Below, one piece after another: positions 1-13,375 of a DNA stretch of 15,370 nucleotides; within the stretch, counting starts at the first letter, position 1; the number at the start of each line of letters is the position of its first letter. The stretch comes from a virus (taxonomy: Duplodnaviria > Heunggongvirae > Uroviricota > Caudoviricetes): the IMG/VR virus record IMGVR_UViG_2751185972_000002. One strand, given 5' to 3'. The position numbers and the translations under genes were made by a program. The notes under the pieces are model-generated. The model saw only the letters and a list, made by a program, of their open reading frames with translations, did no database searches and was not told the DNA's origin.

Positions 1-705
1 AAGACCGCACGAATATAACGGTGGGTTCCCCCCAAACGAATCGGAAAATCGATACTGGAAAAACTCTAACTCGGTGGCCAGTTTTTGTTGACCACTTCAA
101 ACCGCAAAAAAGCGAACGTCATGCGCCCGGTGGAGTACCAGAACGGCGAAGCATTCACTATCCGTAACGTACAGGTTATGCCTGAATCCATTCCGGCTGG
201 CTTTAAGGCACTGGCTGACATGAGTCCGTTTGAATCCCTGCTGATTGTGGATTTGGGCGGAACCACGCTGGATGTGGCAAAGGTTCAGGGGCAACTGGCA
301 GGTATCAGCCAGGTGTTTTGCGATCCACACGTGGGCGTTTCTCTGATGGCCGATGCCGTACTGTCGGTGATGGCCACTAACGGTATGCGCACCAGTCACC
401 ACATCGCCAATACCATTATCGAACATCGCCATGATGAAGCCTGGCTGCGCCAGCACATCCACAATGACGCGCATTACGCCAGCCTGATGGCGGTAATTCG
501 TGAAAAGGAAGAAACACTGAAACAACGCGTGATCCGCGCGCTGGCGGTTTTTTCGGGTTACGGGCGGGTGATGGTTGTCGGTGGAGGGGCGGAGATTGTG
601 GCACCCGCTATCCGCGAAGCCTGCGGAGTTAATGCGACTTTCATCGCGGACGGGGTGCCACAGTTTGCTCTGGTTAATGGGCTGTACGCAATGGACAAGG
701 AGTAA
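1..705 (+). pseudogene. parM: ParM/StbA-like actin-type segregation ATPase; 5' end off-window and reading frame disrupted near 82-90
   Basis: ORF 85..705 (206 aa) aligns, by recall, with the C-terminal ~185 residues of plasmid R1 ParM (RKKAN, FTIxxVxVMPESIPAG, LIVDLGGTTLD, VMVVGGGAE). The same frame has stops at 16-18 and 67-69. Frame +2 is open from the window start to a TGA at 89-91 and reads ...FPPNESEN..., resembling the ParM segment just upstream. This implies a 1-nt indel around the T5 run 82-86. Confidence 0.55.
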
Positions 706-709
706 ACCA

Positions 710-1021
710 ATGACGACTCCAACCAGACGGATAAGTTTCTATCTGAAGCCCACCGCCGTCAAGAACGAAGGAGAAGCATGCGCCTGGCTGGACAGCCTTA
801 CACCAGAAGCCCGCAAAAGCGGCCAACGCGTGGCTTTTCTGGCCGGGCTGGCACTTCTGAAAATGAATCCGGCAGAGGCTTATCGACTGGCTGCATGGGC
901 TGGTGATGAAGCGTTATCAGTGACACAAACCAGGACAGAACGCCCCGCATCACAGCCAGTATCAACCGCACAGATAACCAGTCAGATGGCCGGAAATATC
1001 CGGGCGTTATTTCCTGAATAA
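710..1021 (+). CDS. parR: ParR-like ribbon-helix-helix DNA-binding protein (partition adaptor-like), 103 aa
   Basis: RBS AAGGAG 8 nt upstream of ATG 710, 4 nt after the parM-like stop. N-terminal residues RRISFYLKP...AWLDSLTPEARKSGQRVAFLAGLAL resemble R1 ParR (RRTIAFKLNP...CDTLDSIPQGERS...AALTAGLAL) by recall. Position directly downstream of parM matches parMR operon order. The track ORF 575..1021 is an upstream extension overlapping parM. Confidence 0.6.
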   Translation: MTTPTRRISFYLKPTAVKNEGEACAWLDSLTPEARKSGQRVAFLAGLALLKMNPAEAYRLAAWAGDEALSVTQTRTERPASQPVSTAQITSQMAGNIRALFPE

Positions 1022-1029
1022 CACAACAT

Positions 1030-1047
1030 CAGGGCGAGTTCGCCCTG
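1030..1047. repeat. GC-rich palindrome CAGGGCGA-gt-TCGCCCTG (hairpin) 38 bp upstream of ORF 1085
   Basis: Arms 1030-1037 and 1040-1047 are perfect reverse complements. The same arm sequence recurs at 1688-1713. No T-tract follows. Confidence 0.6.
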
Positions 1048-1084
1048 CTCTCCACCTCAGAACATAAACAAGGAGAACGACTTA

Positions 1085-1675
1085 ATGAGCGAAATCAACT
1101 ATCAGGCATTACGTGAACGTTATTCACCTGTGCCAGTACCGAAATGCCCTATTTGCGGCGAGGAAATGTCAATTCAGCGAATATCTGGAGCACAGGTTGT
1201 TTATGCCTGCTCCGGTTATGGTGATGATGGAGATTTCAAAATTGGCCGAACTCTTGCTGACGAACATTATGAAAAATCACGCGTAACAGTGTTGGATGTC
1301 GGGGATCCTGAAGTATTGGCGCTACTTGATTGGCTGGAAACCAAAGACAACCGAATCGCTGAACTGGAAAAAATCGCCACTGACTATGCACTTAAATTCC
1401 AGAAAGCACAGGACGCATTAAAGCATGCCGCTTTGCTGCATAGCAGGACGGCGCAACAAACAAATAATTTTGCAGTATCGCTTCCGGACATAAGCGAATA
1501 TTTCATTAATGACGTATTTCAGCCCTTGCGATACGAGCGGGATGTTGAAAGAGCCATCATAAAGGCTGGCGGAAAAGCATTGTGGCAGGAGAAACACGAG
1601 GACAGAACGCATCAGTCATGCGATGTAAATTGTGGATGGTTTAGCCCACTGACGACAGATAAAAATAACACCTGA
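1085..1675 (+). CDS. hypothetical protein, 196 aa; N-terminal CPICG Cys motif plus predicted coiled coil; possible ead/Ea22-like relative
   Basis: Strong RBS AAGGAG 7 nt upstream of ATG 1085; clean 196-codon ORF. Visibly more AT-rich than neighbours. N-terminus (xINYQALRE) and LALLDWLE coiled-coil segment recall the ead/Ea22-like family of lambdoid prophages; this assignment is tentative and unsearched. Confidence 0.65.
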   Translation: MSEINYQALRERYSPVPVPKCPICGEEMSIQRISGAQVVYACSGYGDDGDFKIGRTLADEHYEKSRVTVLDVGDPEVLALLDWLETKDNRIAELEKIATDYALKFQKAQDALKHAALLHSRTAQQTNNFAVSLPDISEYFINDVFQPLRYERDVERAIIKAGGKALWQEKHEDRTHQSCDVNCGWFSPLTTDKNNT

Positions 1676-1687
1676 TCCCCCTCAAAC

Positions 1688-1713
1688 CAGGGCGATAATC
1701 GCACATCGCCCTG
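1688..1713. repeat. GC-rich palindrome CAGGGCGAT-(8 nt)-ATCGCCCTG 13 bp downstream of ORF 1085..1675
   Basis: Arms 1688-1696 and 1705-1713 are perfect reverse complements and share the CAGGGCGA/TCGCCCTG core with the hairpin at 1030-1047. Possible terminator or cassette boundary; no T-tract follows. Confidence 0.6.
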
Positions 1714-1714
1714 C

Positions 1715-1741
1715 TGCACAATAGTGCACAAATTTGCACAA
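1715..1741. repeat. Three direct TGCACAA heptamers spaced exactly 10 bp apart (1715, 1725, 1735); a fourth copy at 1807-1813
   Basis: Read directly: TGCACAAtagTGCACAAattTGCACAAttttttt. Helical-phase spacing suggests a protein-binding array (operator, iteron or centromere-like). Confidence 0.55.
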
Positions 1742-2112
1742 TTTTTTTGAACGAATTTTTGCCCTTCCAGCCCGCGTGGCGGCTGGATCCGTCAAGGATC
1801 CGTGCGTGCACAAAAAAACGCGCTTTTTCTGCGCGCAGGTGACGGGGGAACAGCCCGCGTTTCAGGGGGTAAATAGCGTTCCCTTAACGATGTCGCAGCG
1901 ACACGACAGAATGGCCGTATTTCTCACGCTGAGCGTGAAAAATACGTGAGGGATTCTGATTTGATGGGGTGAAAGGTAAGGCCGTCAAAATCGCACTGAG
2001 GCGGCGAGAACATGCAGTCAACGCGGTGGGATTGCGTAAGAGTCTGACCGTCGATGGTGGCGATAAACTGGAAGGCGTCGTGAAATTATCTGACTGATAC
2101 AGGAGCTGGAGA

Positions 2113-2141
2113 GTCGGGGCATAAATTTTTTATGCCCCGGC
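2113..2141. repeat. Perfect 11-bp inverted repeat CGGGGCATAAA-ttt-TTTATGCCCCG between convergent accessory genes and Q
   Basis: Arms 2115-2125 and 2129-2139 are exact reverse complements. Lies about 25 bp beyond the Q stop. May be a bidirectional terminator-like hairpin, but no flanking U-tract on either strand. Confidence 0.45.
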
Positions 2142-2165
2142 GAAGCAGCAGACAAGCGAAGCGCG

Positions 2166-3212
2166 TCAGGATGTGGGCTGGATGTCTAACAGTGCGTAAG
2201 GGTTAAAGCGGATCACCTCTTCGCCAAGCCAGTCATTGATGTGCTTCATGGCCTCCATGACGGGCATCAGCTCGTTAATTGCGTAAACCCGCGCGGCCTT
2301 CTCCACATCACCAAACGCACTTTTTTCACCCGGCATCGCCCCCATCAGTTGCGGCGGAACGCGGTGCGCAGCCAGCACATCATCACGGGATGCCGCCTTA
2401 ACATTCATGAACTCATCCTTTGCGGTGATCTGCTGGAACGGCAAAATTTGCACCCCCTCTTTGCCCCCGTTGGGCGCATGAATGAGCACGTTTTTAAACG
2501 CACCACCACCACGCGCACCCTGTAGCGTTTCTTTCAGGGAGTCCATGCTTTCGCGGTTTACCTGCGCGGCACCGATGTAGATGATGCACCCGGCGTGGGA
2601 TCCGTTGTCGTAATACAGTTTTCTGAACATGTCCGCCGAATGAGACAGGCTGGCCGAGAGTAATGCGCCGAGATATTCCGGCATGCCGTAGATTTCCTGG
2701 TTAATGTCAGGATTCATCAGGTGACACACTTTGCCTGGGCGAAACTGAAACGCATCCTTGCCATCCTGCACATACCTCCATGATTCAAGATCGCTTCCGC
2801 GTCGCATGTATTTCGCCAGGGCGTGCCGTAATTTAAGCGGTTCGCCGAGCATATTGCTTCGAAGCTCAAGGAATGCGTTACCGAACACAAACCAGTCCAG
2901 CGCCAGCGCCGAGAAATCCTGCCGGGAAAGCAGCGGGTGCGGGATGTAGCAACCGAGCAATACATTGCGCTTAAAATAAAGCGCAGACTGATGCCAGGAC
3001 GTTTGCCGGGCAGCTCTTGCCAGACCGTACCAGTCCACCGGGGTTTCATACCACCGCCCGTTATCAGCACAGTACATATTGTCCAGCAGGTCATGCCCGG
3101 TCAGGCGATAAGGACCATCAAATGTGAATGCACTGAGCGATGATTCTTTCCTGAGCGCATCAGCGAGATCAATGCGTGAACTCATGCGCACTTTTTTATT
3201 TTTTCTGCTCAT
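2166..3212 (-). CDS. Q: portal protein (P2 gpQ-like), 348 aa
   Basis: Length matches P2 Q (344 aa by recall). Immediately downstream of, and overlapping by 1 nt (TGATG), the terminase gene, as in the P2 P-Q operon. RBS GGAG 7 nt upstream of ATG at 3212. Confidence 0.88.
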   Translation of the reverse strand: MSRKNKKVRMSSRIDLADALRKESSLSAFTFDGPYRLTGHDLLDNMYCADNGRWYETPVDWYGLARAARQTSWHQSALYFKRNVLLGCYIPHPLLSRQDFSALALDWFVFGNAFLELRSNMLGEPLKLRHALAKYMRRGSDLESWRYVQDGKDAFQFRPGKVCHLMNPDINQEIYGMPEYLGALLSASLSHSADMFRKLYYDNGSHAGCIIYIGAAQVNRESMDSLKETLQGARGGGAFKNVLIHAPNGGKEGVQILPFQQITAKDEFMNVKAASRDDVLAAHRVPPQLMGAMPGEKSAFGDVEKAARVYAINELMPVMEAMKHINDWLGEEVIRFNPYALLDIQPTS

Positions 3213-4963
3213 CAGAACTCCATAACCGTGAAACGCTCGTTTTCTCCTTCGCCGCCAATCGGTTCGTTAATGACAGCAAGCATGGTTGCCCACGCAAGGT
3301 CGCCGTGGCTGATCCCCCTCGCTCGGTCCGTTTCGTAAGTGATAAAGCCGCCCGGTGTTTTCACCTTACGCACGGCGTTAAAGGCCGCGACCAGCTCGCG
3401 TTCGGCGCGATCGTATTCCCACCGCCCGGCACGCATTATTTGCAGCATTTTCAGTACCAGCGACCGTTTTGATGACAGCGTGAAGGTGTACGGAATAGCG
3501 GCAGGGAAAAACCGTTTCACTATCTGATAAACAGCCTCCCCGTTCCCGCCCGTCACATCAATGCCGATGTGTTCCACGTTGTAGCGACACGTGAACTCTT
3601 CAATGACTCTGGCCTGTTCTTCAAACTCCAGCCCCTGAACGCGTCGCGTCTCCACCGTTCGAAAACGGCCACCAGGAACAGACGGAGGAACCACCACGGA
3701 CACAGCGCCGCTGTCGCCGTTGCCACTGCTGCCGTTTGCGTCATACCCAATCCATACCGGACGATTCCCCATCGGGCGGGGAGCAAAAGGTTTCCAGTCT
3801 TTCCAGTCGTCGTATCCGTCAACGCCGCAGCCAATCAGGATATTCAGGTTAAATGCCGATTCCCCTTCGCGGACAAACTCACACATATAGAGATTGAGGA
3901 ACTCGTCTTCGGTGTTTTCATCACGAATTTCGTCGATATCGGTGTGTTTCCAGCCGTGATTAACCACATCTTCCAGCGTGACAATTTGCCGCCACGTCCG
4001 GTCAGGGCAGATAAGCCCGTTATGCAGCGTTTTCCAGTCCACAGAAAAACGCTGGCGTTTATGCGAGGCCTTTTTCTCGTTCCAGCGGTCGCCGTTCCAG
4101 TAGGCGTATGCCTCGTGCGTTTCGGTGGATGGCGTGGAGAAGTAGGTGCGCCGCAGTCCGCTGAGGGTTGCCATAGCGCCAGCCACCTTGCGCAGTTCAG
4201 CAAAGCGACTGACCCAGAAAAATTCATCAAAATAAAAATTGCCCGTATAGGACTGTGCCGACGCAGCAGAAGTGCCGAGAAAATGCAGCTCTGCGCCGTT
4301 GGAGAGGATGATTTTATCGCCCCCTTTCAGCTCCACATCAACTTCAGCCGCGGCCTTCTGAATAATGCTTTTAAACTGGAACGCCTGACGACGCGACGCA
4401 GACAAAAAAATCTGGTTACGCTGGTAAGGTTGCGCCACATCGTCACGCAGCGCCATCAGCAGTGCTTCCTGTGCAAAATACCAGGTCGCCCCAATCTGTC
4501 GGGATTTCAGGATCATCCTGTTACGTATCCCGGCTTCCCTGCAAAGGGTCAGGGAGTCAAACCAGCCCCGCTGATGCCACTCCAGCCTGCTGATGATTTT
4601 TTCCCGCAGTGCGGCAATCTGTTCCGGCGTGAAATGATTTTTGAGTTTTTTCGCCCGGCCTTTCTTTCCTGCGGCCATCACATCCGGCTGGCCATCATGC
4701 AGCTTTTTAAGCTGCCGGGTCAGCAGGTCTATTTCCTTAAAGTCACCGCCTGTTTTATTCTGTTTTTCAGTAAGCTGGATGAGGCGCGCATCGATGGACT
4801 GCGTGACACGCTGCCCGGGTGGCGTTTCATCCCACTGGTCACGTTTTTTCCACGCATAAATCGTGTTCGGGTTTATTCCCATCAGACGTGATATTTCTGC
4901 GGGCGGATAACCCTGCCAGTAAAGTTGCCGCGCACGCTGGCGCACAAAAGCGTCCTGAATCAT
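3212..4963 (-). CDS. P: terminase large (ATPase) subunit (P2 gpP-like), 583 aa
   Basis: 583 aa vs P2 P 590 aa. N-terminal helix-turn-helix-like segment (YWQGYPPAEISRLMGINPNTIYAWKKR) typical of P2-family terminase ATPase. RBS GGGGGAG 5 nt upstream of ATG at 4963. Divergent from O as in P2. Confidence 0.9.
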   Translation of the reverse strand: MIQDAFVRQRARQLYWQGYPPAEISRLMGINPNTIYAWKKRDQWDETPPGQRVTQSIDARLIQLTEKQNKTGGDFKEIDLLTRQLKKLHDGQPDVMAAGKKGRAKKLKNHFTPEQIAALREKIISRLEWHQRGWFDSLTLCREAGIRNRMILKSRQIGATWYFAQEALLMALRDDVAQPYQRNQIFLSASRRQAFQFKSIIQKAAAEVDVELKGGDKIILSNGAELHFLGTSAASAQSYTGNFYFDEFFWVSRFAELRKVAGAMATLSGLRRTYFSTPSTETHEAYAYWNGDRWNEKKASHKRQRFSVDWKTLHNGLICPDRTWRQIVTLEDVVNHGWKHTDIDEIRDENTEDEFLNLYMCEFVREGESAFNLNILIGCGVDGYDDWKDWKPFAPRPMGNRPVWIGYDANGSSGNGDSGAVSVVVPPSVPGGRFRTVETRRVQGLEFEEQARVIEEFTCRYNVEHIGIDVTGGNGEAVYQIVKRFFPAAIPYTFTLSSKRSLVLKMLQIMRAGRWEYDRAERELVAAFNAVRKVKTPGGFITYETDRARGISHGDLAWATMLAVINEPIGGEGENERFTVMEF

Positions 4964-5117
4964 TGCTCCCCCTGAGTAATTACAGGAAGATTACCCGCGC
5001 GCGAAACTGTTCTCCTTAACCCTCTGTTCTGGCCGTTTTCTTACAACAAAAGCCCTTTGTATCAGCCTGTTACGCTTTGCCATCATGACTGAAGAACCAG
5101 TCAGAGGGGCAAAAACT
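4964..5117. promoter_or_regulatory. Divergent late promoter region between P and O (expected Ogr-type activator-dependent promoters)
   Basis: 154-bp gap between divergently transcribed P and O. In P2 this gap carries the late promoters activated by Ogr; that is established knowledge, not read from this sequence. The only symmetric element I see is an imperfect dyad ACAAA-agccc-TTTGT at 5046-5060. No clear sigma70 -35/-10, consistent with activator dependence. Confidence 0.35.
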
Positions 5118-5954
5118 ATGGCTAATGAAAAAAAGACATCCCGCAAAAAGTTTCGCGTGGCTGTCTCCGGATCAACTGTTGATGGCCGTGAAATCAGTCC
5201 GGTGCATCTGCGTGAAGCCGCCGAGAACTTCAACCCGGATGTTTACGCTGCCCGCGTGAACGTTGAGCACTATCTCTCGCCATGCCCGTCAAGCGAATTT
5301 TCCGCAATGGGCGATGTCACCGCACTGAGTACGGAAGAGATTACGGAAGGTCCGCTGGCCGGACGTACTGCGCTGTATGCAGAAATCGAACCGACCGAGC
5401 GCATGAAGCAGCTTGTTGCGGACGGCAAGAAAATCTATTCCAGTATCGAACTGCACCCGCAGTTCTCCGTTAACGGGCGCGCCTATCTGGTCGGGCTGGC
5501 GATGACCGACACCCCGGCAAGCCTGGGCACTGAGCGCCTGAAATTCACGGCACAGCAACGTCAGGCGGTGATGACGTTTAACAGTATCCAGGGTGAAGCG
5601 CCGCTTATCTCCGAAGCCATCGAGTCTGAAATCATCGAAATGGCAGAACAACGCCAGGAAGAAGGCACCCAGTGGTTTAACCGCGTAATGGGGATTATTG
5701 GCCGTGGCCGCAAAGCGGATGACGCCAGTTTTTCCCGTATTCAGGAAGCGGTGGAAGGCGTCGCAACGTCACAGGCCGACATTATCGACCGTTTTAATGT
5801 GCTGGAAACCCGCCATCAGCAGGACCGCCAGAAAATTACGTCACTGACCACAGAGCTGGCAGCACTGAAGGAAAAACTGCGCACGCAGGACGGCGATCCG
5901 CAGAACCGCTTCACCGCAACGGGCGCAGCCTCCGACCAGCTGGCCGACTTCTGA
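5118..5954 (+). CDS. O: capsid scaffolding protein (P2 gpO-like), 278 aa
   Basis: Start set to ATG 5118 (MANEKK...; RBS AGAGGGG upstream) rather than the track start 5085. Sequence KKFRVAVSGSTVDGREIS...YLVGLAMTDTPASLGTE parallels P2 gpO (FFRIGVEGDTCDGRVIS...YLVGLAVTDDPASLGTE, recall). P2 O is 284 aa. Confidence 0.88.
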   Translation: MANEKKTSRKKFRVAVSGSTVDGREISPVHLREAAENFNPDVYAARVNVEHYLSPCPSSEFSAMGDVTALSTEEITEGPLAGRTALYAEIEPTERMKQLVADGKKIYSSIELHPQFSVNGRAYLVGLAMTDTPASLGTERLKFTAQQRQAVMTFNSIQGEAPLISEAIESEIIEMAEQRQEEGTQWFNRVMGIIGRGRKADDASFSRIQEAVEGVATSQADIIDRFNVLETRHQQDRQKITSLTTELAALKEKLRTQDGDPQNRFTATGAASDQLADF

Positions 5955-5977
5955 TTAGACAAAGGAGCAAATTTTTT

Positions 5978-7029
5978 ATGAATCTGGTGATGTCAGATAT
6001 TACCCGCAACAAGCTGGGTTGCTATATGGCGCAGCAGGTGTCGCTTAATAATATCCCGGTATCTGCACTGGTGTCGCGATTTACCGTGGAACCCGCGGTG
6101 CAGCAGCGTTTTGAAAACGCCTCAAAGGAAAGTACCGAATTTACGAAAAAAATAACGTGATCGGCGTGACCGACCAGAAAGGCGAAAAAATCCTCCTGGA
6201 TACCACAGGACCGATTGCGCGCACGAATACCAGTTATGACGGCACAAAACGCCGTAACCCGAATAACGTGGTTGATCTGAAAAACCGCAAATATCAGTGT
6301 GAACAGGTGAACTACGACACGTTTATTTCGTATCCGCAGCTTGATGCCTGGTCGGCACACCCTGATTTTCAGTCCCGCATCAGCGCACAGATTGCCCGAC
6401 AGGTGGCGCTTGACCGCATCATGATCGGTTTCAACGGCACGTCTCACGCGGATGAGTCCAACTTCAGCACCAACAAGCTGCTTCAGGACGTTAACGTGGG
6501 CTGGCTGGAGCACATCAGAACCGACGCCAGCGAACGCGTTATGAATGACGTGACGCTGACCTCCCGCAACATGGACAACACCGTGGCGCACGCGGGTAAG
6601 TATGCGAACGCTGATGCACTGGTACAGGACGCGCGTTCATCCCTGCTGGATGAATGGCACAAGGAAGCTGACGACCTCGTGGTGATTATGGGGCGCAACC
6701 TGTTTAACTCGCTGCGTCTGCCCGTGCTGAACAGCATCAGCGGCCAGAATCCCAATGCGGAATTACTCGCCGGGCAGCTCATCCTGTCATCGCGCACCAT
6801 TGGCGGGCTGGGCGTGTTCCTTGCGCCGTTCTTCCCGGATGCAACGATGCTGATCACCTCGTTCAACAACCTGTCGATTTACTGGCAGAAAGGTTCAATG
6901 CGTCGCCTGATGAAAGACGAGCCGGAATACAACCGCATCGCCACCTACCAGTCCATCAATGACGCTTATGTCGTTGAAGACTATGGCAAGTGCGCGATGG
7001 TTACTGGCCTGAAGTTCGCCGACAGCTAA
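5978..7029 (+). pseudogene. N: major capsid protein (P2 gpN-like) with a 1-nt frameshift at the A7 run 6146-6152
   Basis: ORF 5978..6160 (60 aa; RBS AAGGAG; contains RFTVEPAV like P2 N KFTVEPSV) stops at TGA 6158-6160. ORF 6157..7029 (290 aa) continues the P2 N homology (KGEKI, MIGFNGT, VGWL, DLVVIMGR, LSIYW, DYVVEDY). Combined length ~350 aa vs P2 N 357 aa. Restoring one base at or next to the A7 tract gives a continuous ...EFTKKINVIGVTDQ... frame. Confidence 0.8.
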
Positions 7030-7038
7030 TCAACTCAC

Positions 7039-7057
7039 GGCGGGCATCATGCCCGCC
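7039..7057 (+). other. GC-rich hairpin GGCGGGCA-tca-TGCCCGCC directly after the capsid gene stop
   Basis: Perfect 8-bp arms at 7039-7046 and 7050-7057, 10 nt after the N stop and 18 nt before the M start. No U-tract, so more likely an mRNA-stability or attenuation element than a full terminator. Confidence 0.4.
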
Positions 7058-7074
7058 TGTAACGGAGAGCAAAA

Positions 7075-7875
7075 ATGATTACTCCTGCACAACAACACTG
7101 GCAGAACGTGATGGCACAGCGCGCAGGCCGGGCGAATGAAGGCGTGGACCACGCCGCGCGTACCGCGCATGAAGAGGTGCTGTATCGTCTGCGTCTGGCA
7201 CAGGCCCGGCTTAAGGGCGTACAGGCCAGAAGCGCGAAAGCCGCCATCAAAAAAGAGTTGTTGCCGGATTTTTCCGGCTGGATTGAGGGAACGCTGGAGG
7301 CTGACGGCGGGCAGCAGGATGAAGTGATTGCCACGCTGATGGTGTGGGCGATTGACTGTGGCGATCTTCCGCTTGCGCTGCGTATCGGCGCGTATGTAGT
7401 CCGTCACAACCTCATCATGCCGGATAACTTTGGCCGTACTGCTGCCACGGTACTGACCGAAGAAATCTGTAATCCGGTACTGACGCAGGCCGGGACGGAT
7501 GCCGACGCGGATTTGTCCGCCTTTATCGAACCACTGGACACCCTCCGGGAGATTGTCACCGACCAGGACATGCCGGACGAAGTGCGCGCCAAATTATGCA
7601 AAGCGTGCGCCTTTGCCCGCCGTGGCCTGAGTGATGCGGACAGCATGGCCCTGTCACTGAAGCTGCTGCGCGAAGCAATGCACCTGAACCCGAACGCAGG
7701 TGTGAAACGCGAGATTGCAACCCTTTCCCGCGCCCTGAAAAAAGCCGATTCCGCAGCCGAACCAGAAGACGCCAGCGCACAGCAGGCGCAGGACGAAAGC
7801 AGCAAAAGTAAAAAGACAACGCGGAAGCCTGCAACACGAAAAACCACCGCGACGCAGAAGGCGAAGCGCGGTTAA
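7075..7875 (+). CDS. M: terminase small (endonuclease) subunit (P2 gpM-like), 266 aa
   Basis: RBS GGAGA 6 nt upstream. Sequence KKELLPDF, DMPDEVRAKL and the basic K/R-rich C-terminal tail match P2 gpM (KKRELLPFW, DMPDEVRAKL; recall). P2 M is 247 aa. Confidence 0.88.
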   Translation: MITPAQQHWQNVMAQRAGRANEGVDHAARTAHEEVLYRLRLAQARLKGVQARSAKAAIKKELLPDFSGWIEGTLEADGGQQDEVIATLMVWAIDCGDLPLALRIGAYVVRHNLIMPDNFGRTAATVLTEEICNPVLTQAGTDADADLSAFIEPLDTLREIVTDQDMPDEVRAKLCKACAFARRGLSDADSMALSLKLLREAMHLNPNAGVKREIATLSRALKKADSAAEPEDASAQQAQDESSKSKKTTRKPATRKTTATQKAKRG

Positions 7876-7891
7876 CGACTGACCCCGTCAG

Positions 7892-7964
7892 CGGGCGGCG
7901 TGCGCGGTGTTCCAGTTTGACTCCGTGACCGTTTACACCGCGCACCCACCGCCCGATTTTTTTT
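7892..7964 (+). terminator. Long imperfect GC-rich inverted repeat followed by a T8 tract, immediately upstream of L
   Basis: Left arm 7892-7909 (CGGGCGGCGTGCGCGGTG) pairs with right arm 7936-7955 (CACCGCGCACCCACCGCCCG); 10-bp and 5-bp helices with a small internal bulge and a 26-nt loop, followed by TTTTTTTT at 7957-7964. Terminator or attenuator-like, but the loop is atypically long. Confidence 0.35.
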
Positions 7965-7978
7965 CAGGAGTGAACCCC

Positions 7979-8473
7979 ATGACTATAGTTGCCAGAACTG
8001 AACCCGGACCCGCAGAGGACGACATCACCGATACCGATGATGGCGATACCCGCATTTCAGCGGGTGCATTCTGGCCGGATATTGTGCTGCGCGAGCTGCG
8101 TCTGGCGGTACGACTGCCGGGGCGCGTGACCACCTCCCGCCTGCTGCATACTGCCACCGGGGCTGTGGCACACGTTACCCGCGAGCTGGAAGCATGGCAG
8201 CAGGAACAGCAGGCAGCTGGCCATCAGACGCTGGCCGATGTTCCGGCACCCGTAATTAACGGAGAAAGCGTCAATCTCTGGCACTGGCGCAATGCTGTTT
8301 ATACCGCCACGCGCGCCCTGATTCTGGAGCGTTATCGTGATGCAGACACTACGGACAAGGGCGACCGCCGGGCAGACGCTCTGGATATACAGACATCGGA
8401 TTTGTGGCGTGATGTGAGCTGGGCCATCTCTGACATTCTGTGCCGCCCGCGAATCTTTGCGGAGTTGTGCTGA
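7979..8473 (+). CDS. L: head completion/stabilization protein (P2 gpL-like), 164 aa
   Basis: Start set to ATG 7979 (RBS CAGGAG upstream); the track start 7907 lies inside the inverted repeat. Sequence DVPAPVINGESV...LERYRDADTTDKGDRRADALD...DLWRD parallels P2 gpL (recall). P2 L is 169 aa. Confidence 0.85.
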   Translation: MTIVARTEPGPAEDDITDTDDGDTRISAGAFWPDIVLRELRLAVRLPGRVTTSRLLHTATGAVAHVTRELEAWQQEQQAAGHQTLADVPAPVINGESVNLWHWRNAVYTATRALILERYRDADTTDKGDRRADALDIQTSDLWRDVSWAISDILCRPRIFAELC

Positions 8474-8673
8474 TGAAAGTGAAGGCACTGGAAGGCGACA
8501 CCGTGGATTCGCTCTGTTTCCGGTACTACGGCACGACGCAGGGCGTCACCGAAAAGGTGCTGGATGCCAACCCCGGACTCTGTCAGCAGGTATTTCTGGA
8601 CGCCGGGCAGGAAGTGGAGATGCCGGAGCCGGAGAAGAAGAAACGAGAAATGATTCAGTTGTGGGGGGAGTAG
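8473..8673 (+). CDS. X: tail protein X (P2 gpX-like, LysM-like fold), 66 aa
   Basis: ATG 8473 overlaps the L stop (TGATG). MKVKALEGDTVDSLCFRYYGTTQGVTEKVLDANPGL resembles P2 gpX (MKTFALQGDTLDAICVRYYGRTEGVVETVLAANPGL; recall). P2 X is 67 aa. Confidence 0.82.
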   Translation: MKVKALEGDTVDSLCFRYYGTTQGVTEKVLDANPGLCQQVFLDAGQEVEMPEPEKKKREMIQLWGE

Positions 8674-8675
8674 CA

Positions 8676-8999
8676 GTGAGCACCATTCAAACAGGGATCA
8701 CAGAGCAGGTTATTGCGTGGCTCTTTGACCACCTGCCAACGGTGTATGCAGTAGGCGCGGCGGTCAGCATTTCCGCGCTGATGAGCCTTTATGACGGACG
8801 AACACTGGTTCAGACCGTAACGGGATCGCTGGCGTGCGGCGTTCTTGCCATGGCCGTGGCCGGGTCGTTGCGCTTCTTCGGGTTTCCTGAAGATGCCGTG
8901 ACGTTTATCGGCGCATCAATCGGTTTTATGGGTGCAGAGAAAGCACGCGACAAGGTTATTGCGGCCTTTAATCGCAGGGTGAAGGAGAAGGACGAATGA
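8676..8999 (+). CDS. holin (putative), ~107 aa with hydrophobic transmembrane segments
   Basis: GTG 8676 is preceded by RBS GGGGGGAG and sits 2 nt after the X stop. Product has hydrophobic stretches (AVGAAVSISALM, LACGVLAMAVAGSL) and a charged C-terminus. Position between X and the endolysin matches P2 gene Y. The track ORF 8457..8999 is an in-frame upstream extension overlapping X. Confidence 0.65.
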   Translation: MSTIQTGITEQVIAWLFDHLPTVYAVGAAVSISALMSLYDGRTLVQTVTGSLACGVLAMAVAGSLRFFGFPEDAVTFIGASIGFMGAEKARDKVIAAFNRRVKEKDE

Positions 9000-9388
9000 G
9001 CAACACATTTAAATTCAGCAGCCGGAGCGAAAAGAATTTGCAGGGTGTAAATCCTGATCTGGTGAAAGTGACCCGACGGGCACTGGAAATCTCGGAAGTG
9101 GATTTTGGTATCACCGAAGGGTTGCGCAGCCGTTACCGCCAGAAGCAACTGGTGGCCACGGGTAAGAGCCAGACCATGAACAGCCGCCACCTTACGGGGC
9201 ATGCCGTGGATGTTGTGGCTTATATCGGCAGCCAGATGTCATGGGAATGGCCGCTGTACGAAAAAATCGCAGCAGCATTCAGACAGGCCAGCCGGGAACT
9301 GAATATTCCGGTGGAATGGGGCGGCGACTGGAAGACCCTGAAAGACGGACCGCATTTTCAGTTACCACACGGAGCCTATCCGGCATGA
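8996..9388 (+). CDS. endolysin, peptidase M15 family (L-Ala-D-Glu or D-Ala-D-Ala peptidase-like), 130 aa
   Basis: ATG 8996 overlaps the holin stop (ATGA). Zinc-ligand pattern of the M15 / VanY-like fold: SRHLTGHAVD (H...D) and DGPHFQL (H). Position downstream of the holin. Confidence 0.8.
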   Translation: MSNTFKFSSRSEKNLQGVNPDLVKVTRRALEISEVDFGITEGLRSRYRQKQLVATGKSQTMNSRHLTGHAVDVVAYIGSQMSWEWPLYEKIAAAFRQASRELNIPVEWGGDWKTLKDGPHFQLPHGAYPA

Positions 9389-9792
9389 AGCTCTGGCCCA
9401 CGCTTGGCGTCGCTTTCCTTCTGACTGCCGGATGGGGAACATCCATGCGTCTGTCGTGGTCGCTGGGCCGGGAGAACGCCAGAAACGAAGCGCAGGCCAG
9501 CACCCTGAAAAGTACCGCCGACACCCTGAATATCATCAGCGCCGGGGTACAGGATATGCAGCAGGTGCTGGCGCAACTCCGCGTGGAAAATCAGCAACGC
9601 AATCAGGACGGAGAGGTAAGACGTGAACAGCTACGCAACGATATTGCAAAAGATGAATGCGCCCACGCTTTGCCTGACGCTCGTTTTACTGACAGGCTGC
9701 GCAGGCACGCAGAACGCGCCACTGCCAGCGCCGTCAGTCCGGCTTATACCGCAGACGCTGACCATACCGGTAACGCCTCCCCCCTTCCCTGA
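9385..9792 (+). CDS. lysB: i-spanin (Rz / P2 LysB-like inner-membrane spanin), ~135 aa
   Basis: ATG 9385 overlaps the endolysin stop (ATGA). N-terminal transmembrane segment (LWPTLGVAFLLTAGW), then a charged coiled-coil-like region. An o-spanin gene is embedded in its 3' part. The track ORF 9241..9792 is an upstream extension. Confidence 0.7.
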   Translation: MKLWPTLGVAFLLTAGWGTSMRLSWSLGRENARNEAQASTLKSTADTLNIISAGVQDMQQVLAQLRVENQQRNQDGEVRREQLRNDIAKDECAHALPDARFTDRLRRHAERATASAVSPAYTADADHTGNASPLP

Positions 9793-9943
9793 CACTCCCA
9801 CATGGGGAAATCTCGGTATATGGGGCGACCGCCTTCTGGATGCACTGGAAACCTGTAACGCGGATAAACGGGCCATTGAATTACTGGAACAGCGCAGGCT
9901 GCAACGACTGAACAACGAGGATAACAACCATGCTGAAAACTGA
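9623..9943 (+). CDS. lysC: o-spanin (Rz1 / P2 LysC-like outer-membrane lipoprotein), overlapping the i-spanin in another frame
   Basis: Lipoprotein signal with lipobox LLTGC, followed by a proline-rich segment (PLPAPSVRLIPQTLTIPVTPPPFPDTP). GTG 9623 has RBS GGAGAGG 6 nt upstream; ATG 9653 is an alternative start. Begins inside the i-spanin gene and extends beyond it, as for P2 lysB/lysC. Confidence 0.65.
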   Translation: MNSYATILQKMNAPTLCLTLVLLTGCAGTQNAPLPAPSVRLIPQTLTIPVTPPPFPDTPTWGNLGIWGDRLLDALETCNADKRAIELLEQRRLQRLNNEDNNHAEN

Positions 9944-10397
9944 TTCCCTGCGTGAAGCCATGACCCGTTCATGCCGATGGTGTCAGGCTAACCCGGAAAA
10001 ATTCACCATTTTCGTGGAGAGCGGCAACATTGAAACGACCGGAGAAACCCCATCGTTTGTTTACCGCTATCAGATGGTGATGTTTGTCATGGATTACGCC
10101 GGGGAGCTGGACGACCTCACGCTGCCGCTGCTGGCGTGGTTATCCGAAAATCAGCCACAGTTGTTGCTCAACCCTGAGCGTAATCAGGACATCAAATTTT
10201 CCGCCGTTATCAATGACGATGACAGCGCCGATCTCCTGTTTACGCTCCCCCTGCGGGAACGCGTTCGCATCACGCGCAGCAGTCAGGGCACACCGCAGGC
10301 AGAACACCTGCTGGAGCCAAAACCCCGCCTGCCATCTTCCGAAGGCGACTGGTCGCATGTATTCCAGGATGTGACGTGGGGTGAAAGCGATGGATAA
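9930..10397 (+). CDS. R: tail completion protein (P2 gpR-like), 155 aa
   Basis: RBS GAGGA 8 nt upstream. 155 aa, the same as P2 R by recall. N-terminus MLKTDSLREAM and LPLLAWLSENQP resemble P2 gpR (MLKPDSLRRAL, VPVLAWLRENQP; recall, moderate certainty). Position between the lysis genes and S. Confidence 0.8.
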   Translation: MLKTDSLREAMTRSCRWCQANPEKFTIFVESGNIETTGETPSFVYRYQMVMFVMDYAGELDDLTLPLLAWLSENQPQLLLNPERNQDIKFSAVINDDDSADLLFTLPLRERVRITRSSQGTPQAEHLLEPKPRLPSSEGDWSHVFQDVTWGESDG

Positions 10398-11025
10398 GGC
10401 ATTCACTCGCGTGGATGAAACCTTTGAGGCCATCCGCGACAGCCTGAATCAGCAGGCCATCAATAACATCGCCAGAAAGCTGGCACAGGATTTACGCCGC
10501 GCCCAGCAGGCACGTATCCGGCCACAGAAAGCGCCGGACGGGACCGCATGGACACCACGCAGACGCCACGTAACCCGGATACAGGAGCGCATTCGCTTTA
10601 TCTGGAATAACGAAGCACGCACGCTGAAAAACTGGCATCACGACACGGGGAAATACGGGCGAACCATCACCGGGTGGGATGAGGATAAAAACAGCATCCG
10701 CACGTTTTACCGGGATGACATCGACCGCTTTCTGGAAATACGCACCCGGCGCATCAACCAGGACAGCACAAAGCGCGTCCCCATGTTCGTAAAACTGCGC
10801 ACCGCCCGCTACCTGAAAGCCCGTGCAGATGCTTCCGGTGTGACGGTGGGTTACAGCGGCGTGGCCGCACGTATTGCACGCGTTCATCAGTTCGGTGAGC
10901 GCGATCAGGTTGCGCCGGGCATTTTCACCGATTACCCGGTACGTGAGCTGCTGGGTATCAGCCAGGCAGATGAGCGTCTGATTTATAACACGGTGCTGGG
11001 CCGGATTGCGGAGGCTGTACGGTGA
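10390..11025 (+). CDS. S: phage virion morphogenesis / tail completion protein (P2 gpS-like), ~211 aa
   Basis: ATG 10390 overlaps the R stop (GTG 10381 is an alternative start). C-terminal VHQFGERD...LLGISQADE matches the gpS-family HQFG motif. Longer than P2 S (about 150 aa by recall). Confidence 0.78.
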   Translation: MDKAFTRVDETFEAIRDSLNQQAINNIARKLAQDLRRAQQARIRPQKAPDGTAWTPRRRHVTRIQERIRFIWNNEARTLKNWHHDTGKYGRTITGWDEDKNSIRTFYRDDIDRFLEIRTRRINQDSTKRVPMFVKLRTARYLKARADASGVTVGYSGVAARIARVHQFGERDQVAPGIFTDYPVRELLGISQADERLIYNTVLGRIAEAVR

Positions 11026-11603
11026 GCGCAGAACTCATGCGGCTACTGAGCAATATCATCCGCACCGGGATCATCTCTGAAGTTGATGAGAAGTCCTGGC
11101 GCGTGCGCGTTCGCAGCGGCGAACTGGAAACAGGTTGGCTGCGCTGGAACACCTCTCGCGCGGGAGCCTTCAATGTGTGGCTGCCGCCATCACCAGGCGA
11201 ACAGGTGGTAATTGCCTGCATTGGCGGCAACCCGGAAACCGCCATGATAATTGGCAGCCTGTGGAGTGATGCCATTCCGGCCCCCGGCAAAAGCCTGAAA
11301 GAAATCGTGGTCAGCGCGCCGGATGGCGCGGTGTTCCGCTACGACGCGGACGCAGGCGCACTGAGCGCCAGCGGCATGAAAACAGCCACCCTGCAGGCAT
11401 CCGTCAGCGTGACACTGGATACGCCCGTCGTGGAATGCACAGACCTTCTGAGAACGGCGACGCTTGACGTCACAAAAGGGGGAAAGATGAGCGGCAATAT
11501 CACGCACAGCGGCGGCAATTTCACCTCAAACGGCATCACAGTGCATACGCATAAACACGGTGGCGTTAAAGGTGGCAGCGATTCGACAGGAGGCCCGCAG
11601 TGA
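11022..11603 (+). CDS. V: baseplate spike / assembly protein V (P2 gpV-like), 193 aa
   Basis: GTG 11022 with RBS GGAGG 7 nt upstream, overlapping the S stop (GTGA). IRTGII, PSPGEQVVIA, SGMKTA, LDTPVVECT, KGGKMSGNITHSGGNFTSNGITVHTHKH all parallel P2 gpV (recall). Confidence 0.85.
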   Translation: MSAELMRLLSNIIRTGIISEVDEKSWRVRVRSGELETGWLRWNTSRAGAFNVWLPPSPGEQVVIACIGGNPETAMIIGSLWSDAIPAPGKSLKEIVVSAPDGAVFRYDADAGALSASGMKTATLQASVSVTLDTPVVECTDLLRTATLDVTKGGKMSGNITHSGGNFTSNGITVHTHKHGGVKGGSDSTGGPQ

Positions 11604-11950
11604 CAACCCGCTACACAGGAATGAACCCGGACGGAACGGGAAACCTGAACGATATGGAGCACCTGAAACAGTCAGTCAGGGACATCCTGACCACCCCGCT
11701 GGCAAGCCGGGTTATGCGACGGGAATATGGCAGCCTTGTGCCTGATTTGATTGACGAACCCATGAATAACACCACGCGTCTGCAATGCATGAGTGCTGCC
11801 GTGATTGCGCTGACACGATGGGAACCCCGCATTGCCCTGGACGCTATCGACGTTGTCTGGAAGGCAGGAGGCCGCGCCGGGGTGACGCTGTCGGGCACTG
11901 TCATGCAGACCATGCAGAATGTTGAATTAACCATCACGCTGAGGGAGTAA
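11600..11950 (+). CDS. W: baseplate wedge protein W (P2 gpW-like), 116 aa
   Basis: GTG 11600 with RBS AGGAGG 5 nt upstream, overlapping the V stop. MTTRYTGMN...SRVMRREYGSL...WEPRI parallels P2 gpW (MTARYLGMN...SRVMRRDYGSL...WEPRV; recall). P2 W is 115 aa. Confidence 0.85.
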   Translation: MTTRYTGMNPDGTGNLNDMEHLKQSVRDILTTPLASRVMRREYGSLVPDLIDEPMNNTTRLQCMSAAVIALTRWEPRIALDAIDVVWKAGGRAGVTLSGTVMQTMQNVELTITLRE

Positions 11951-11953
11951 ATC

Positions 11954-12850
11954 ATGCCTGCCGTTGACCTTTCACAGTTACCGGAACCCGCCATCATCGC
12001 GGAGCCTGACTTTGAGGCAATTCTGGCTGACACAAAGGCCATGATGATTGCGTCCTATCCCGCCGAACAGCGTGAAGCCGTTTCCGCCGCGCTGGAGCTG
12101 GAATCGGAACCCCTTAACGTTATCGCTCAAACCATGTCGTTTCGTGAAATGCTGTTACGCCAGCGGGTCAATGAGGGTGCACGCGCCTGCATGCTAAGCC
12201 ACAGCGCCGGGACAGACCTGGACAACCTCGCGGGCAATATGAACACAAAGCGCCTGGTTATCACTCCGGCAACGGATACCACCGATGCAGTGATGGAAAG
12301 TGACACCTCGCTGAGACTACGGGCGCAACGGGCATATGACGGTCTGAGTGTTGCTGGCCCGTCAGGTGCATACGAGTATTTTGCACGCAGCGCCAGCGGT
12401 CTGGTACGCGATGCGCGGGCCATCAGCCCGTCTCCGGCCAACGTGACGGTTTCCATCCTGTCCACTGAGGGCGACGGCACAGCAACGGAGGCGTTGCTTA
12501 ATACCGTTCGCGCCGTTCTGAATGCAGAGGATACCCGCCCGGTGGCCGACCGCCTGACCGTACAGAGTGCCAGAATCGTGACATGGCGGCTGAATGCAAA
12601 ACTGTACTTTTACCCCGGCCCGGAATCCGAACCTATTCTGGCCGCGGCTGAATCGTCGTTCAGGAAGTGGCTGGCTGAGCAGGGGCTTATCGGTCAGGAC
12701 GTGGCGTTGTCCGCCATTGCTGCCGCACTGCATGTGCACGGTGTGCAACGCGTGGAGATAATCGAACCCACACAGAATATGGCCATCAGCGACATACAGG
12801 CGGCGCGCTGTGAGTCATTCACCATCAGCGAAGGTGGACGCAATGAGTAA
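11954..12850 (+). CDS. J: baseplate assembly protein J (P2 gpJ-like), 298 aa
   Basis: RBS GAGGGAG upstream. MPAVDLSQLPEP..., ESEPL, RPVADRLTVQSA, YPGPESEPI, LHVHGVQRVE closely parallel P2 gpJ (recall). P2 J is 302 aa. Confidence 0.9.
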   Translation: MPAVDLSQLPEPAIIAEPDFEAILADTKAMMIASYPAEQREAVSAALELESEPLNVIAQTMSFREMLLRQRVNEGARACMLSHSAGTDLDNLAGNMNTKRLVITPATDTTDAVMESDTSLRLRAQRAYDGLSVAGPSGAYEYFARSASGLVRDARAISPSPANVTVSILSTEGDGTATEALLNTVRAVLNAEDTRPVADRLTVQSARIVTWRLNAKLYFYPGPESEPILAAAESSFRKWLAEQGLIGQDVALSAIAAALHVHGVQRVEIIEPTQNMAISDIQAARCESFTISEGGRNE

Positions 12851-13373
12851 TTCGTTGTTACCACCATCAGCCAGCAATTTCATGCGTTGTGCCGAAGCCG
12901 TCGGAACACGCATTACAGACATTCCGGTAGACCTCAACACGCTGTGGTCGCCGGACACCTGCCCGGTGCATCTGCTGCCTTATCTCGCCTGGGCGTTTTC
13001 CGTTGACCGCTGGGATCGCAACTGGCCGGAAGAGACAAAGCGACAGGTTATTCGTGATGCATGGCTGATACACCGACACAAAGGGACCATCAGCGCACTG
13101 CGCCGGGCCATTGAGCCGCTGGGATACCTCATTCGCGTGTCTGAGTGGTGGGAGTTCGGCGGAGAACCGGGAACATTTACCGTTGAAGTCGGCACGCTGG
13201 ACAGTGGCGTGACGGAGGAAATGTATCTGGAAATGGAGCGGTTGATTGCTGATGCCCGCCCGGTCAGCCGCCACATGACAGGGCTGAATATCATTCAGGA
13301 AATTCCGGGGGATATTTTCGCAGCGGCGGCAACTTATGACGGTGAAGTTATTACCATTTATCCAGGCGATTAA
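12843..13373 (+). CDS. I: baseplate / tail formation protein I (P2 gpI-like), 176 aa
   Basis: Start set to ATG 12843, overlapping the J stop by 8 nt; this gives 176 aa, equal to P2 I. The track start 12810 is an in-frame upstream extension inside J. Confidence 0.82.
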   Translation: MSNSLLPPSASNFMRCAEAVGTRITDIPVDLNTLWSPDTCPVHLLPYLAWAFSVDRWDRNWPEETKRQVIRDAWLIHRHKGTISALRRAIEPLGYLIRVSEWWEFGGEPGTFTVEVGTLDSGVTEEMYLEMERLIADARPVSRHMTGLNIIQEIPGDIFAAAATYDGEVITIYPGD

Positions 13374-13375
13374 GC

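Follow-up and report, generated by a model that had tools for sequence, protein, structure and literature searches.

An IS911-truncated parMR locus in a defective P88-like prophage and the probable partition module of its intact relatives

The DNA considered here, referred to below as the window, is a single stretch of 15,370 nucleotides that begins within an insertion sequence and runs through a damaged partition locus into the late genes of a P2-like prophage. Positions 1-99 (plus strand) are the right end of IS911, a member of the IS3 family. Its terminal inverted repeat occupies positions 64-99 (reverse complement, TGAAGTGGTCAACAAAAACTGGCCACCGAGTTAGAG), and identity to the IS911 copies annotated in the Shigella phages Sf6 and SfII is 99%. 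The transposase of this element reads toward the adjoining parM sequence, and in a sister assembly (L003) the upstream neighbor is an IS3-type OrfAB gene on the same strand.

In an alignment with phage P88, base 100 is the first that is homologous to parM, and it falls at codon 119 of a 319-codon gene. The remnant (100-705, plus strand) is of the R1 type and comprises codons 119-319, the last 201 and some two-thirds of the gene, with the stop codon; gene callers report it as a 194-aa open reading frame at 121-705. The slightly longer frame at 85-705 matches the Pfam families ParM_N (2.3e-69) and StbA_N (7.9e-15), and so the ParM homolog proposed in a preliminary description of this DNA is indeed present. 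The remnant retains the DLGGTT and GGGAE motifs and differs from P88 ParM at 2 amino acids over the shared part, while the N-terminal phosphate-binding loop (DDGSTNIK) is gone along with the rest of codons 1-118. Full-length P88 ParM matches R1 ParM (PDB 1mwk) with E = 9e-93 over residues 2-316, and it thus has both nucleotide-binding halves, of which the window copy keeps only residues 119-319. IS911 has replaced codons 1-118 of parM and everything upstream, leaving the window without the N-terminal ATP-binding half, the promoter and the centromere region.

The preliminary description had called parM frame-disrupted as sequenced, and three-frame translations did suggest a change of frame. The P88 alignment and the IS911 match place the break, near 85-100, at a clean junction between bases 99 and 100, and the frameshift is rejected. 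An exact search for the junction sequence in one genome per species found no copy. Relatives that carry it were recovered by an exact look-up of the 194-aa truncated ParM, which revealed that Shigella boydii 600657 and four further assemblies have the same junction.

The next gene, parR (710-1021, plus strand), is intact, encodes 103 aa and starts 5 nt past the parM stop codon. Its product matches PF10784 (Plasmid_stab_B, 3.1e-23) over 71 of the 72 profile positions, and PHROG 2515, annotated as a partition protein (1.7e-57); no match to ParR was found among PDB sequences. The N-terminus is a ribbon-helix-helix DNA-binding domain (RRISFYLKP...), as the preliminary description had recognized, and the C-terminus carries the motif NIRALFPE. 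In the general form (K/G)N(A/I)xxLFP, this motif aligns with KKNAMKLIN of the R100 protein StbB, with the N and L invariant in six sequences (the phage ParRs and StbB). The ParR tail in R1 is reportedly a ParM-binding helix. A G+C-rich hairpin, CAGGGCGAGTTCGCCCTG, lies between parR and the following gene (1030-1047), and P88 has an equivalent hairpin.

The third gene (1085-1675, plus strand) is an intact member of the Ead/Ea22 family. Its 196-aa product matches PF13935 (2.1e-32; 113 bits against a curated cut-off of 27, residues 2-140) and PHROG 368, a family of unknown function. The AT-rich character, cysteine motif and coiled coil noted earlier are all borne out: G+C content is 0.45-0.46 compared to 0.55-0.57 in the flanks, the N-terminus has a CxxC motif, and the middle of the protein is predicted to form a coiled coil. 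Ea22 of phage lambda has been reported to be pro-lysogenic, and Ea22 proteins affect the lysis-lysogeny decision in lambdoid phages. The arrangement parM-parR-Ead/Ea22, with the last gene annotated as an ead/Ea22-like family protein, occurs in 226 complete Escherichia coli genomes. P88 has two other small open reading frames at this position, and relatives in other genera have HicAB, a KAP NTPase and others; the variable cargo of the locus is only the gene after parR.

Beyond the Ea22-like gene is a conserved non-coding block (1715-2165), about 97% identical to P88 and also found in phage 500465-2, which is predicted to contain cos. Three TGCACA motifs occur at its left edge (1715, 1725 and 1735) with an exact 10-bp spacing, and the linear record of P88_4B11 terminates at the base corresponding to window position 1759. 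The 19-mer of the P2 cos site is absent from the window, even with up to 3 mismatches allowed. A perfect 11-bp hairpin on the minus strand (2115-2139), just downstream of the stop codon of gene Q, matches the position of the annotated P2 terminator tQ; a search of Rfam over the whole window returned no family at its gathering score. Next come the portal gene Q (2166-3212, minus strand; 348 aa; PF04860, 3.3e-17, and the P88 annotation) and the large terminase gene P (3212-4963, minus strand; 583 aa; Terminase_6N and Terminase_6C). The parM remnant, parR and the Ea22-like gene are all on the plus strand, convergent with Q and P, and in intact relatives the locus lies between the replication genes and cos, both as originally described.

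To what element does this locus belong? Over window positions 2166-14919, identity is 97.9% to P88 and 97.3% to P88_4B11; positions 100-1759 are 99.9% identical to P88_4B11, and gene order agrees with the P88-like phages across both the late genes and the gpA-cos segment. Very probably, then, positions 1-2165 derive from the right-hand part, between gpA and cos, of a defective prophage of the P88 type (Xuanwuvirus, Peduoviridae) in a Shigella or E. coli chromosome, and the parMR DNA in it is a dead remnant of a pair that in intact relatives would constitute an R1-type partition machine. The decay extends well beyond parM. L003 has lost everything from int to gpA, the whole early region, apart from a 45-aa C-terminal integrase stub (77% identical to the P88 integrase), and the order upstream is two IS3-family elements, the integrase stub and the chromosomal btu genes (btuCED). 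The evidence that the early region has been lost comes from L003, the window itself starting inside IS911, and over the first 30 bases of the window L003 has 2 differences. An IS-mediated inversion that moved the other half of the prophage elsewhere is an alternative to outright loss. In the window, capsid gene N is frameshifted and the tail-fiber gene is interrupted at 14996 by an IS629-like element. Judged from L003 for the early region and from the window for N and the tail fiber, the prophage is no longer a complete genome that could be induced, which would need int, C/cox, gpA and undamaged capsid and tail genes.

Since the window lacks the N-terminal lobe of ParM, the promoter and the centromere region, and the sister assembly lacks int and the replication genes, we infer that the partition system of this copy is dead. 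ParR and the Ea22-like protein would then be the products of orphan survivors. Decay was one of three options raised in the preliminary description, and it fits the window copy best, although the cause is insertion of IS911 with deletion and not a frameshift.

The intact module is widespread. Of 5426 complete E. coli genomes, 1285 carry the same parMR DNA, which occupies 1424 sites on chromosomes and only 2 on plasmids. It is annotated in all P88-like phages (Xuanwuvirus), and the two proteins have their own PHROG families. Gene order in the intact relatives is gpA (encoding the rolling-circle replication nickase), parM, parR, variable cargo, cos and Q, and the gpA-parM-parR-cargo-Q synteny is seen in P88, P88_4B11 and CP-933T of strain EDL933. 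A comparison of the locus across P2-like prophages, as the preliminary description had proposed, extends this synteny beyond E. coli to Plesiomonas (63% ParM identity), Hafnia (62%), Serratia (58%) and Enterobacter (54%). In P88, parM begins 76 bp downstream of gpA in the same orientation. The parM genes of P88 and strain ZY22049 differ by 24 synonymous and 4 non-synonymous changes (dN/dS 0.047), a pattern indicating that parM in intact phages is under strong purifying selection; dN/dS for parR is 0.18-0.36. Chromosomal ParM homologs with 50% identity or less (Dickeya, Mangrovibacter) proved to lie in integrative conjugative element or integrated-plasmid contexts rather than P2-like prophages.

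The presence of parMR in this part of P2-like genomes is already known, published and routinely annotated. Rousset et al. (2022) catalogued the block in the P2 gpA-gpQ hotspot, a region rich in anti-phage systems, and listed the parM-parR-Ead/Ea22 arrangement in their Table S5A; the module is absent from three quarters of P2-like phages. These results run against two earlier statements, namely that the module is unusual in an integrating P2-like prophage and that the locus is cargo standing in place of old/tin. The parMR pair is a conserved block of one phage lineage, not exotic cargo replacing old/tin. The preliminary description also asked whether this gene set was a common, already characterized module of P2-like phages. 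Common it certainly is, but the searchable literature yielded no experiments on any P2-family parMR. Partition is not a topic of the P88 paper, the article entitled 'Bacterial genome-encoded ParMs' does not mention phages, and an apparent lead in the Dickeya tailocin literature was false, 'parm' having matched 'parmentieri'.

If the intact module is a partition system, a cis-acting site would be expected, and the region upstream of parM offers a candidate. Intact phages have a 42-nt direct repeat there, present twice at a distance of 73 bp, and each copy contains the dyad ACGGGA-N7-TCCCG. The same two-dyad layout, with a spacing of 72-73 bp, recurs in Plesiomonas and Hafnia. The upstream strand in P88 is A-rich, and its density of AAAC is the highest in 21 kb (7 in 160 nt, where the mean is 1.0), resembling the AAAC richness of R100 parC (11 in R100). 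A k-mer family search for R1-style iterons upstream of parM in four lineages gave nothing above shuffled controls, and only the two-copy 42-nt repeat with its dyads stands out. No sigma-70-like promoter was found upstream of P88 parM. The preliminary description had suggested looking upstream for a parC-like iteron array, the replication genes and the integrase. What the intact relatives have is the A-rich region with two dyads rather than an iteron array, and L003 has no gpA and nothing of int beyond the stub. In the window, where the DNA upstream of parM is IS911, no parC-like site was found and the candidate boxes are absent from the entire 15 kb. Alternatively, the dyads may form hairpins in RNA or act as terminators. 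A role as minus-strand terminators is plausible in P88, but Plesiomonas does not share this feature, since its dyads are not followed by a T-run.

What, then, does the module do in intact phages? Because parM is under purifying selection and the synteny is kept in other genera, parMR is probably functional, most likely in segregating circular extrachromosomal phage DNA. By this proposal, ParR would bind the candidate cis site just upstream of parM and cap ParM filaments, and the growing filaments would push circular phage genomes apart. Transcription of parMR would most likely occur with, or just after, the early replication operon, and the system would be of use only during the time that the phage is excised or has yet to integrate, as has been shown for srpMRC of SXT/R391 (see below). 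A fuller and more tentative version, possible though we would not call it probable, is that parMR, carried by roughly one in four P2-like prophages of E. coli and by the relatives in Plesiomonas, Hafnia, Serratia and Enterobacter, is an active segregation machine for rolling-circle phage circles. Its centromere would be a compact, dyad-symmetric pair of boxes overlapping the 3' end of gene A, unlike the ten direct iterons of R1, and the phages would gain either a transient, plasmid-like carrier state or a more orderly lytic replication; the window copy would still be dead.

Several other readings deserve to be weighed against segregation of circular phage DNA. One is that parMR serves the lytic cycle, positioning or separating replicating circles for replication and packaging in the manner of the AlpC/AlpA system. 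Replication in P2-family phages yields monomeric circles, and these circles serve as the substrate for packaging; this favors such a role, as does the placement of parMR directly 3' of gpA, co-oriented with it and with no separate promoter detected. Moreover, the phages are almost always integrated (1424 of 1426 places), and AlpAC, an actin-like protein with its adaptor, is reported to be needed for efficient viral DNA replication. Nevertheless, the module is not needed for the basic lytic cycle, since three quarters of P2-like phages do without it, and on balance we consider a dedicated lytic role rather unlikely. The lytic-cycle and transient-episome readings are compatible, not mutually exclusive. 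A quite different possibility, raised in part in the preliminary description, is that the ATPase and its adaptor, or else the parR and Ea22-like genes that survive here, are cargo for defense, exclusion or incompatibility, with one possible route being the titration or mis-segregation of incoming plasmids or phages with related centromeres. The location in a hotspot rich in anti-phage systems, the neighboring HicAB and KAP NTPase cargo in other genera, and the influence of Ea22 proteins on the lambdoid lysis-lysogeny decision all lend this idea some appeal. However, none of the three proteins has a match in PADLOC (E <= 0.01) or resembles P2 Old or Tin, their Pfam families being those of ParM, ParR and Ea22, and the parMR block is conserved whereas defense cargo turns over. 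Cross-reaction with plasmid centromeres is also unlikely because identity to the plasmid homologs is low (48-53% for ParM against plasmid and phage-plasmid ParMs, 27% for ParR against R100 StbB). Finally, the orientation and position of the module fit the early replication operon and not the layout of P2 old and tin, which are on the opposite strand with their own promoter. A defense or exclusion function is therefore improbable.

The remaining reading is that the window copy itself is a working partition module that allows the element to persist as an episome. Its parR is intact and its ParM remnant is only 2 residues removed from P88 ParM, and one P88-like genome has been deposited as a 34.5-kb circular 'plasmid'. 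That record is no evidence for plasmid-type maintenance, because circular P2-like 'plasmid' records exist without parMR, pENTAS02 being one such circle. Against a working module stand the replacement of ParM codons 1-118, with the DDGSTNIK loop, by IS911; the disappearance of the candidate centromere and promoter region from the whole window; the missing replication genes and most of int in L003; the broken capsid and tail-fiber genes; and the residence of the element in chromosomal contigs adjoining btuCED. Together they leave the idea with almost no credibility. A functional partition module, the first option of the preliminary description, thus does not apply to the window copy, but it is the most likely function in the intact relatives.

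The P88-like parMR block (P88, P88_4B11, 520873, phiSM and CP-933T of EDL933) is the same module as that in the window, which differs in being cut by IS911 at parM codon 119 and in lying in a degraded prophage. Among plasmid systems, the closest is ParMRC of R1/R100. The full-length phage ParM can be aligned with R1 ParM over its entire length, and its nucleotide-binding motifs are retained; the phage ParR is likewise a PF10784 protein, with a C-terminal N...L motif that R100 StbB also has; and parM is followed by parR, with an A-rich region upstream in intact phages. The differences are also clear. The phage module is on an integrating P2-family phage directly after gpA, phage ParR is only 27% identical to StbB and the nearest plasmid ParM is 53% identical, and the upstream region has two dyad-symmetric boxes 72-73 bp apart where R1 has two sets of five 11-bp direct iterons. 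The window copy departs further in lacking the N-terminus of ParM and the whole of the upstream DNA.

For the intact phage module, srpMRC of SXT/R391 is the closest functional analog; it has been shown to reduce loss of the excised element and to stabilize a single-copy plasmid. It is an actin-type partition system on a normally integrated element that undergoes rolling-circle replication when excised, as the phage module would be. In contrast to the phage proteins, SrpM is only a distant relative of R1 ParM, and no ParR domain can be recognized in SrpR; srpMRC is co-transcribed with int under SetCD control, and its host element is conjugative and not a phage. The window copy matters little in itself, being degraded and belonging to a prophage module that is very common and routinely annotated. 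The wider question is what role an R1-type actin partition system plays in an integrating, rolling-circle-replicating phage resident in approximately one in four E. coli genomes. If parMR does segregate excised or unintegrated phage circles, phages would have their own equivalent of srpMRC, and the line between temperate phages and phage-plasmids would be blurred.

Two further systems invite comparison. AlpC/AlpA of the Corynebacterium glutamicum prophage CGP3 likewise consists of a prophage-encoded actin-like protein and a DNA-binding adaptor with specific DNA sites, and it is reported to take part in phage DNA transport and efficient replication. AlpC is described as a member of another, far-removed family of actin-like proteins, and its host is Gram-positive. 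Among 50,697 phage records, the sole R1-type ParM outside the P88 group is the StbA-type protein of phage-plasmid D6 (48% identity). Unlike the P88-like phages, D6 is a 91-kb phage that is kept as a plasmid, with no integrase-based lifestyle, and a role in partition is expected there.

Three genes on the + strand converge on the minus-strand portal gene Q (2166-3212) and terminase gene P (3212-4963). They are a remnant of parM (ORF at 85-705; ParM C-terminal domain, 2.3e-69, and the end of StbA_N, 7.9e-15), a 103-aa parR (710-1021; PF10784 Plasmid_stab_B, the ParR/StbB family, 3.1e-23) and a 196-aa Ead/Ea22-like gene (1085-1675; PF13935, 2.1e-32). ORF listing and Pfam scans of the products thus confirm the gene content of the preliminary description and its convergence with Q. 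The Ea22-like gene has a G+C content of 0.45-0.46, versus 0.55-0.57 in the flanking DNA of the window. Ea22 of lambda has been reported as pro-lysogenic, which tells little about this copy.

The parM gene had been read as frame-disrupted; this proved incorrect, as the IS911 match and the alignment to phage P88 show IS911 joined to parM at 99/100. Positions 1-99 are an IS911 end with 99% identity to copies annotated in Shigella phages Sf6 and SfII, including the terminal repeat at 64-99 (reverse complement TGAAGTGGTCAACAAAAACTGGCC...), and the first parM-homologous base, 100, lies in codon 119 of the 319 of P88 parM. The remnant retains the DLGGTT and GGGAE motifs and has lost the N-terminal DDGSTNIK loop of the full-length protein. 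Only two of its residues depart from P88 ParM, so the inactivation looks recent. A search for exact copies of the 194-aa truncated product recovered the same junction from four assemblies, and one Shigella boydii record also carries it.

What lies beyond the junction had to be taken from close relatives, as the window itself begins inside IS911, and only one junction-bearing assembly (L003) has long upstream DNA. Leftward from the junction, this sister assembly carries IS911, a second IS3-family element, an integrase stub of 45 aa that matches the C-terminal end of P88 integrase at 77% identity, two small ORFs and chromosomal btuCED; missing are int (bar the stub), C, cox, the early genes, gpA and one third of parM at its 5' end, although an inversion rather than loss could in principle account for this state. 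The two unannotated ORFs (145 and 120 aa, L003 6096-6895), between the stub and btuC at the att-proximal edge of the remnant, have no Pfam match on record.

Decay extends to the other side of the locus. The major capsid gene N (5977-7029) is split by the loss of one A from a run near 6146-6153, which is A8 in P88 and A7 here. Gene calls divide it in the same way, into 60 + 290 aa, in three further assemblies (L003, L005 and L006) and similarly, into 60 + 271 aa, in a fourth (L004); the frameshift is therefore probably real and not a sequencing error. Tail-fibre homology to P88 and its relative P88_4B11 ends at about 14919-14995, where the left end of an IS629/IS1203-like IS3-family element (14996-15370; TGAACCGCCCCGGGAATCC...) interrupts the gene; the same IS also adjoins the L003 integrase stub, so that the prophage remnant is bracketed by IS elements. 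The window is thus a defective, IS-ridden remnant, and its partition system cannot work, because the ATPase is truncated, the control region upstream of it has been lost and the sister assembly has no replication machinery. Intact parR and Ea22-like genes remain. Of the earlier suggestions, decaying mosaic DNA fits this copy best, with its IS911-cut parM, split capsid gene and interrupted tail fibre, though not with a parM frameshift as the cause; this copy of parM and parR (parMR) is ordinary decay.

Among phages, the closest matches are to P88_4B11 (99.9% across window 100-1759) and to P88; both belong to Xuanwuvirus, Peduoviridae. Both are annotated with the order int, C, cox, early genes, gpA, parM (319 aa), parR (103 aa), a variable slot with one or two small genes, and Q. 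The gene after parR is Ea22-like in P88_4B11 and the window, is replaced by two other ORFs in P88, and gives way to an IS in EDL933 prophage CP-933T. The order gpA-parM-parR-cargo-Q also occurs in prophages of Plesiomonas (ParM identity 63%), Hafnia (62%), Serratia (58%) and Enterobacter (54%), each with a different cargo, including a HicA/HicB toxin-antitoxin pair in Serratia (L011 7450-8084) and a KAP-family NTPase in Enterobacter (L018 6411-7757). Judged by gene order, parMR is the constant block and the gene after parR the variable cargo, and the data fit a true variable defence/cargo hotspot between parR and cos. In P2 the same interval holds orf91, tin and old, the latter two on the opposite strand with their own promoter. 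Recurrence of the order in divergent P2-like prophages argues that the association of parMR with this phage lineage is old and maintained; chromosomal ParM homologues of 50% identity or less lie in ICE or integrated-plasmid settings.

Is the intact module functional? Several lines of sequence evidence say that it should be. Between P88 and the ZY22049 allele (93% identical), parM shows 24 synonymous and 4 non-synonymous differences (dN/dS 0.047), with weaker constraint on parR (0.18-0.36). Full-length phage ParM aligns end to end with R1 ParM (9e-93), and the ParR C-terminal motif (K/G)N(A/I)xxLFP aligns with the C-terminal KKNAMKLIN of R100 StbB; in R1 this is the ParM-binding tail. Together with synteny, the dN/dS and the R1 ParM alignment make the proposed partition role the most likely function in intact relatives, though not for the window copy with its incomplete ATPase. 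E. coli has at least two ParR alleles, only 52% identical, beside nearly identical ParM (CP-933T, L014 6611-6925, versus window 710-1021); the two agree at the first 15 of some 18 residues, which form the DNA-reading strand, and in the LFPE motif at the C-terminus, and diverge in the middle.

In R1 parC, ten 11-bp direct iterons, in two sets of five, surround the promoter. The gpA-parM gap of P88 is only 76 bp. The longest repeat in this region is a 42-nt unit with two copies spaced 73 bp apart, one within the end of gpA (8713-8754) and one at 8786-8827, each with an ACGGGA-N7-TCCCG dyad. Two GGGA-N7-9-TCCC dyads, 72-73 bp apart, occupy the same place in Plesiomonas (L008 5868-5965) and Hafnia (L009 about 5873-5962), and in the P2-like prophages of E. 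coli, Plesiomonas and Hafnia the boxes straddle the stop codon of the gene 5' of parM, a layout different from the R1 array. Serratia and Enterobacter differ, with a roughly 20-nt inverted repeat and a 26-28 nt spacer; both share GGCAAAAAYGGGA with P88. The P88 region is 44% A and 12% T, and its AAAC density is the highest in the 21 kb of P88 (7 per 160 nt versus a mean of 1.0), reminiscent of R100 parC with its 11 AAAC. Since a k-mer search for iteron families 5' of parM did no better than shuffles, no sigma-70-like promoter was detected upstream of P88 parM, and the dyads could be RNA structures rather than a centromere, the two-box region is only a candidate ParR operator or centromere. The window contains none of these boxes and repeats.

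The module had been called unusual, a view that the wider survey does not support: parMR DNA occurs in 1285 of 5426 complete E. coli genomes (1424 chromosomal places, 2 on plasmids), with the full parM-parR-Ea22-cos block in 226, and PHROG families named 'partition protein' match both ParM and ParR. An analysis of 18,150 E. coli loci has covered exactly this gpA-gpQ interval (Rousset et al. 2022, Cell Host Microbe, PMC9122126), so that both the observation and the partition hypothesis are already in print, and parMR in the P2-like interval is already known. In the literature searched, no experiment on the module was found. R1-type ParM is confined, in a set of 50,697 phage records, to the P88 group plus the phage-plasmid D6 (48% identity). 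The nearest plasmid ParM is 53% identical; the few matches of 99-100% come from prophages within large replicons, from wrongly assigned contigs and from one circle of 34.5 kb.

In intact phages, ParR bound beside parM would cap ParM filaments for R1-type pushing, and the filaments would separate circular phage genomes. Because parMR immediately follows the gene for the rolling-circle nickase in the same orientation, it is probably expressed together with the early operon, and would then act during the extrachromosomal phase of the phage DNA. Of the experimentally tested systems, srpMRC of SXT/R391 is the nearest analogue: it stabilises the element when excised and replicating by rolling circle, as well as a single-copy plasmid used as a test. 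By analogy with AlpAC, a role in lytic replication is a live alternative, and would be compatible with partition of extrachromosomal DNA. The case for a stable plasmid state is weak: a complete P88-like genome with parMR and joined attP is deposited as a circular E. coli 'plasmid' (NZ_CP148288.1, 34,461 bp), but pENTAS02 (NC_015969.1, 32.6 kb), also a P2-like circle, lacks parMR, and circular records are therefore no proof of parMR-dependent maintenance. The defence role also suggested for parMR finds no support, PADLOC having returned no match for the ParM remnant, ParR or the Ea22-like protein.

The conserved cos block has at its left edge (window 1715-1740) three copies of TGCACA with exact 10-bp spacing, identical in P88. 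In P2, GTGCAT repeats lie on the corresponding side of cos, and the three TGCACA motifs may be a terminase-binding (cosB-like) element.
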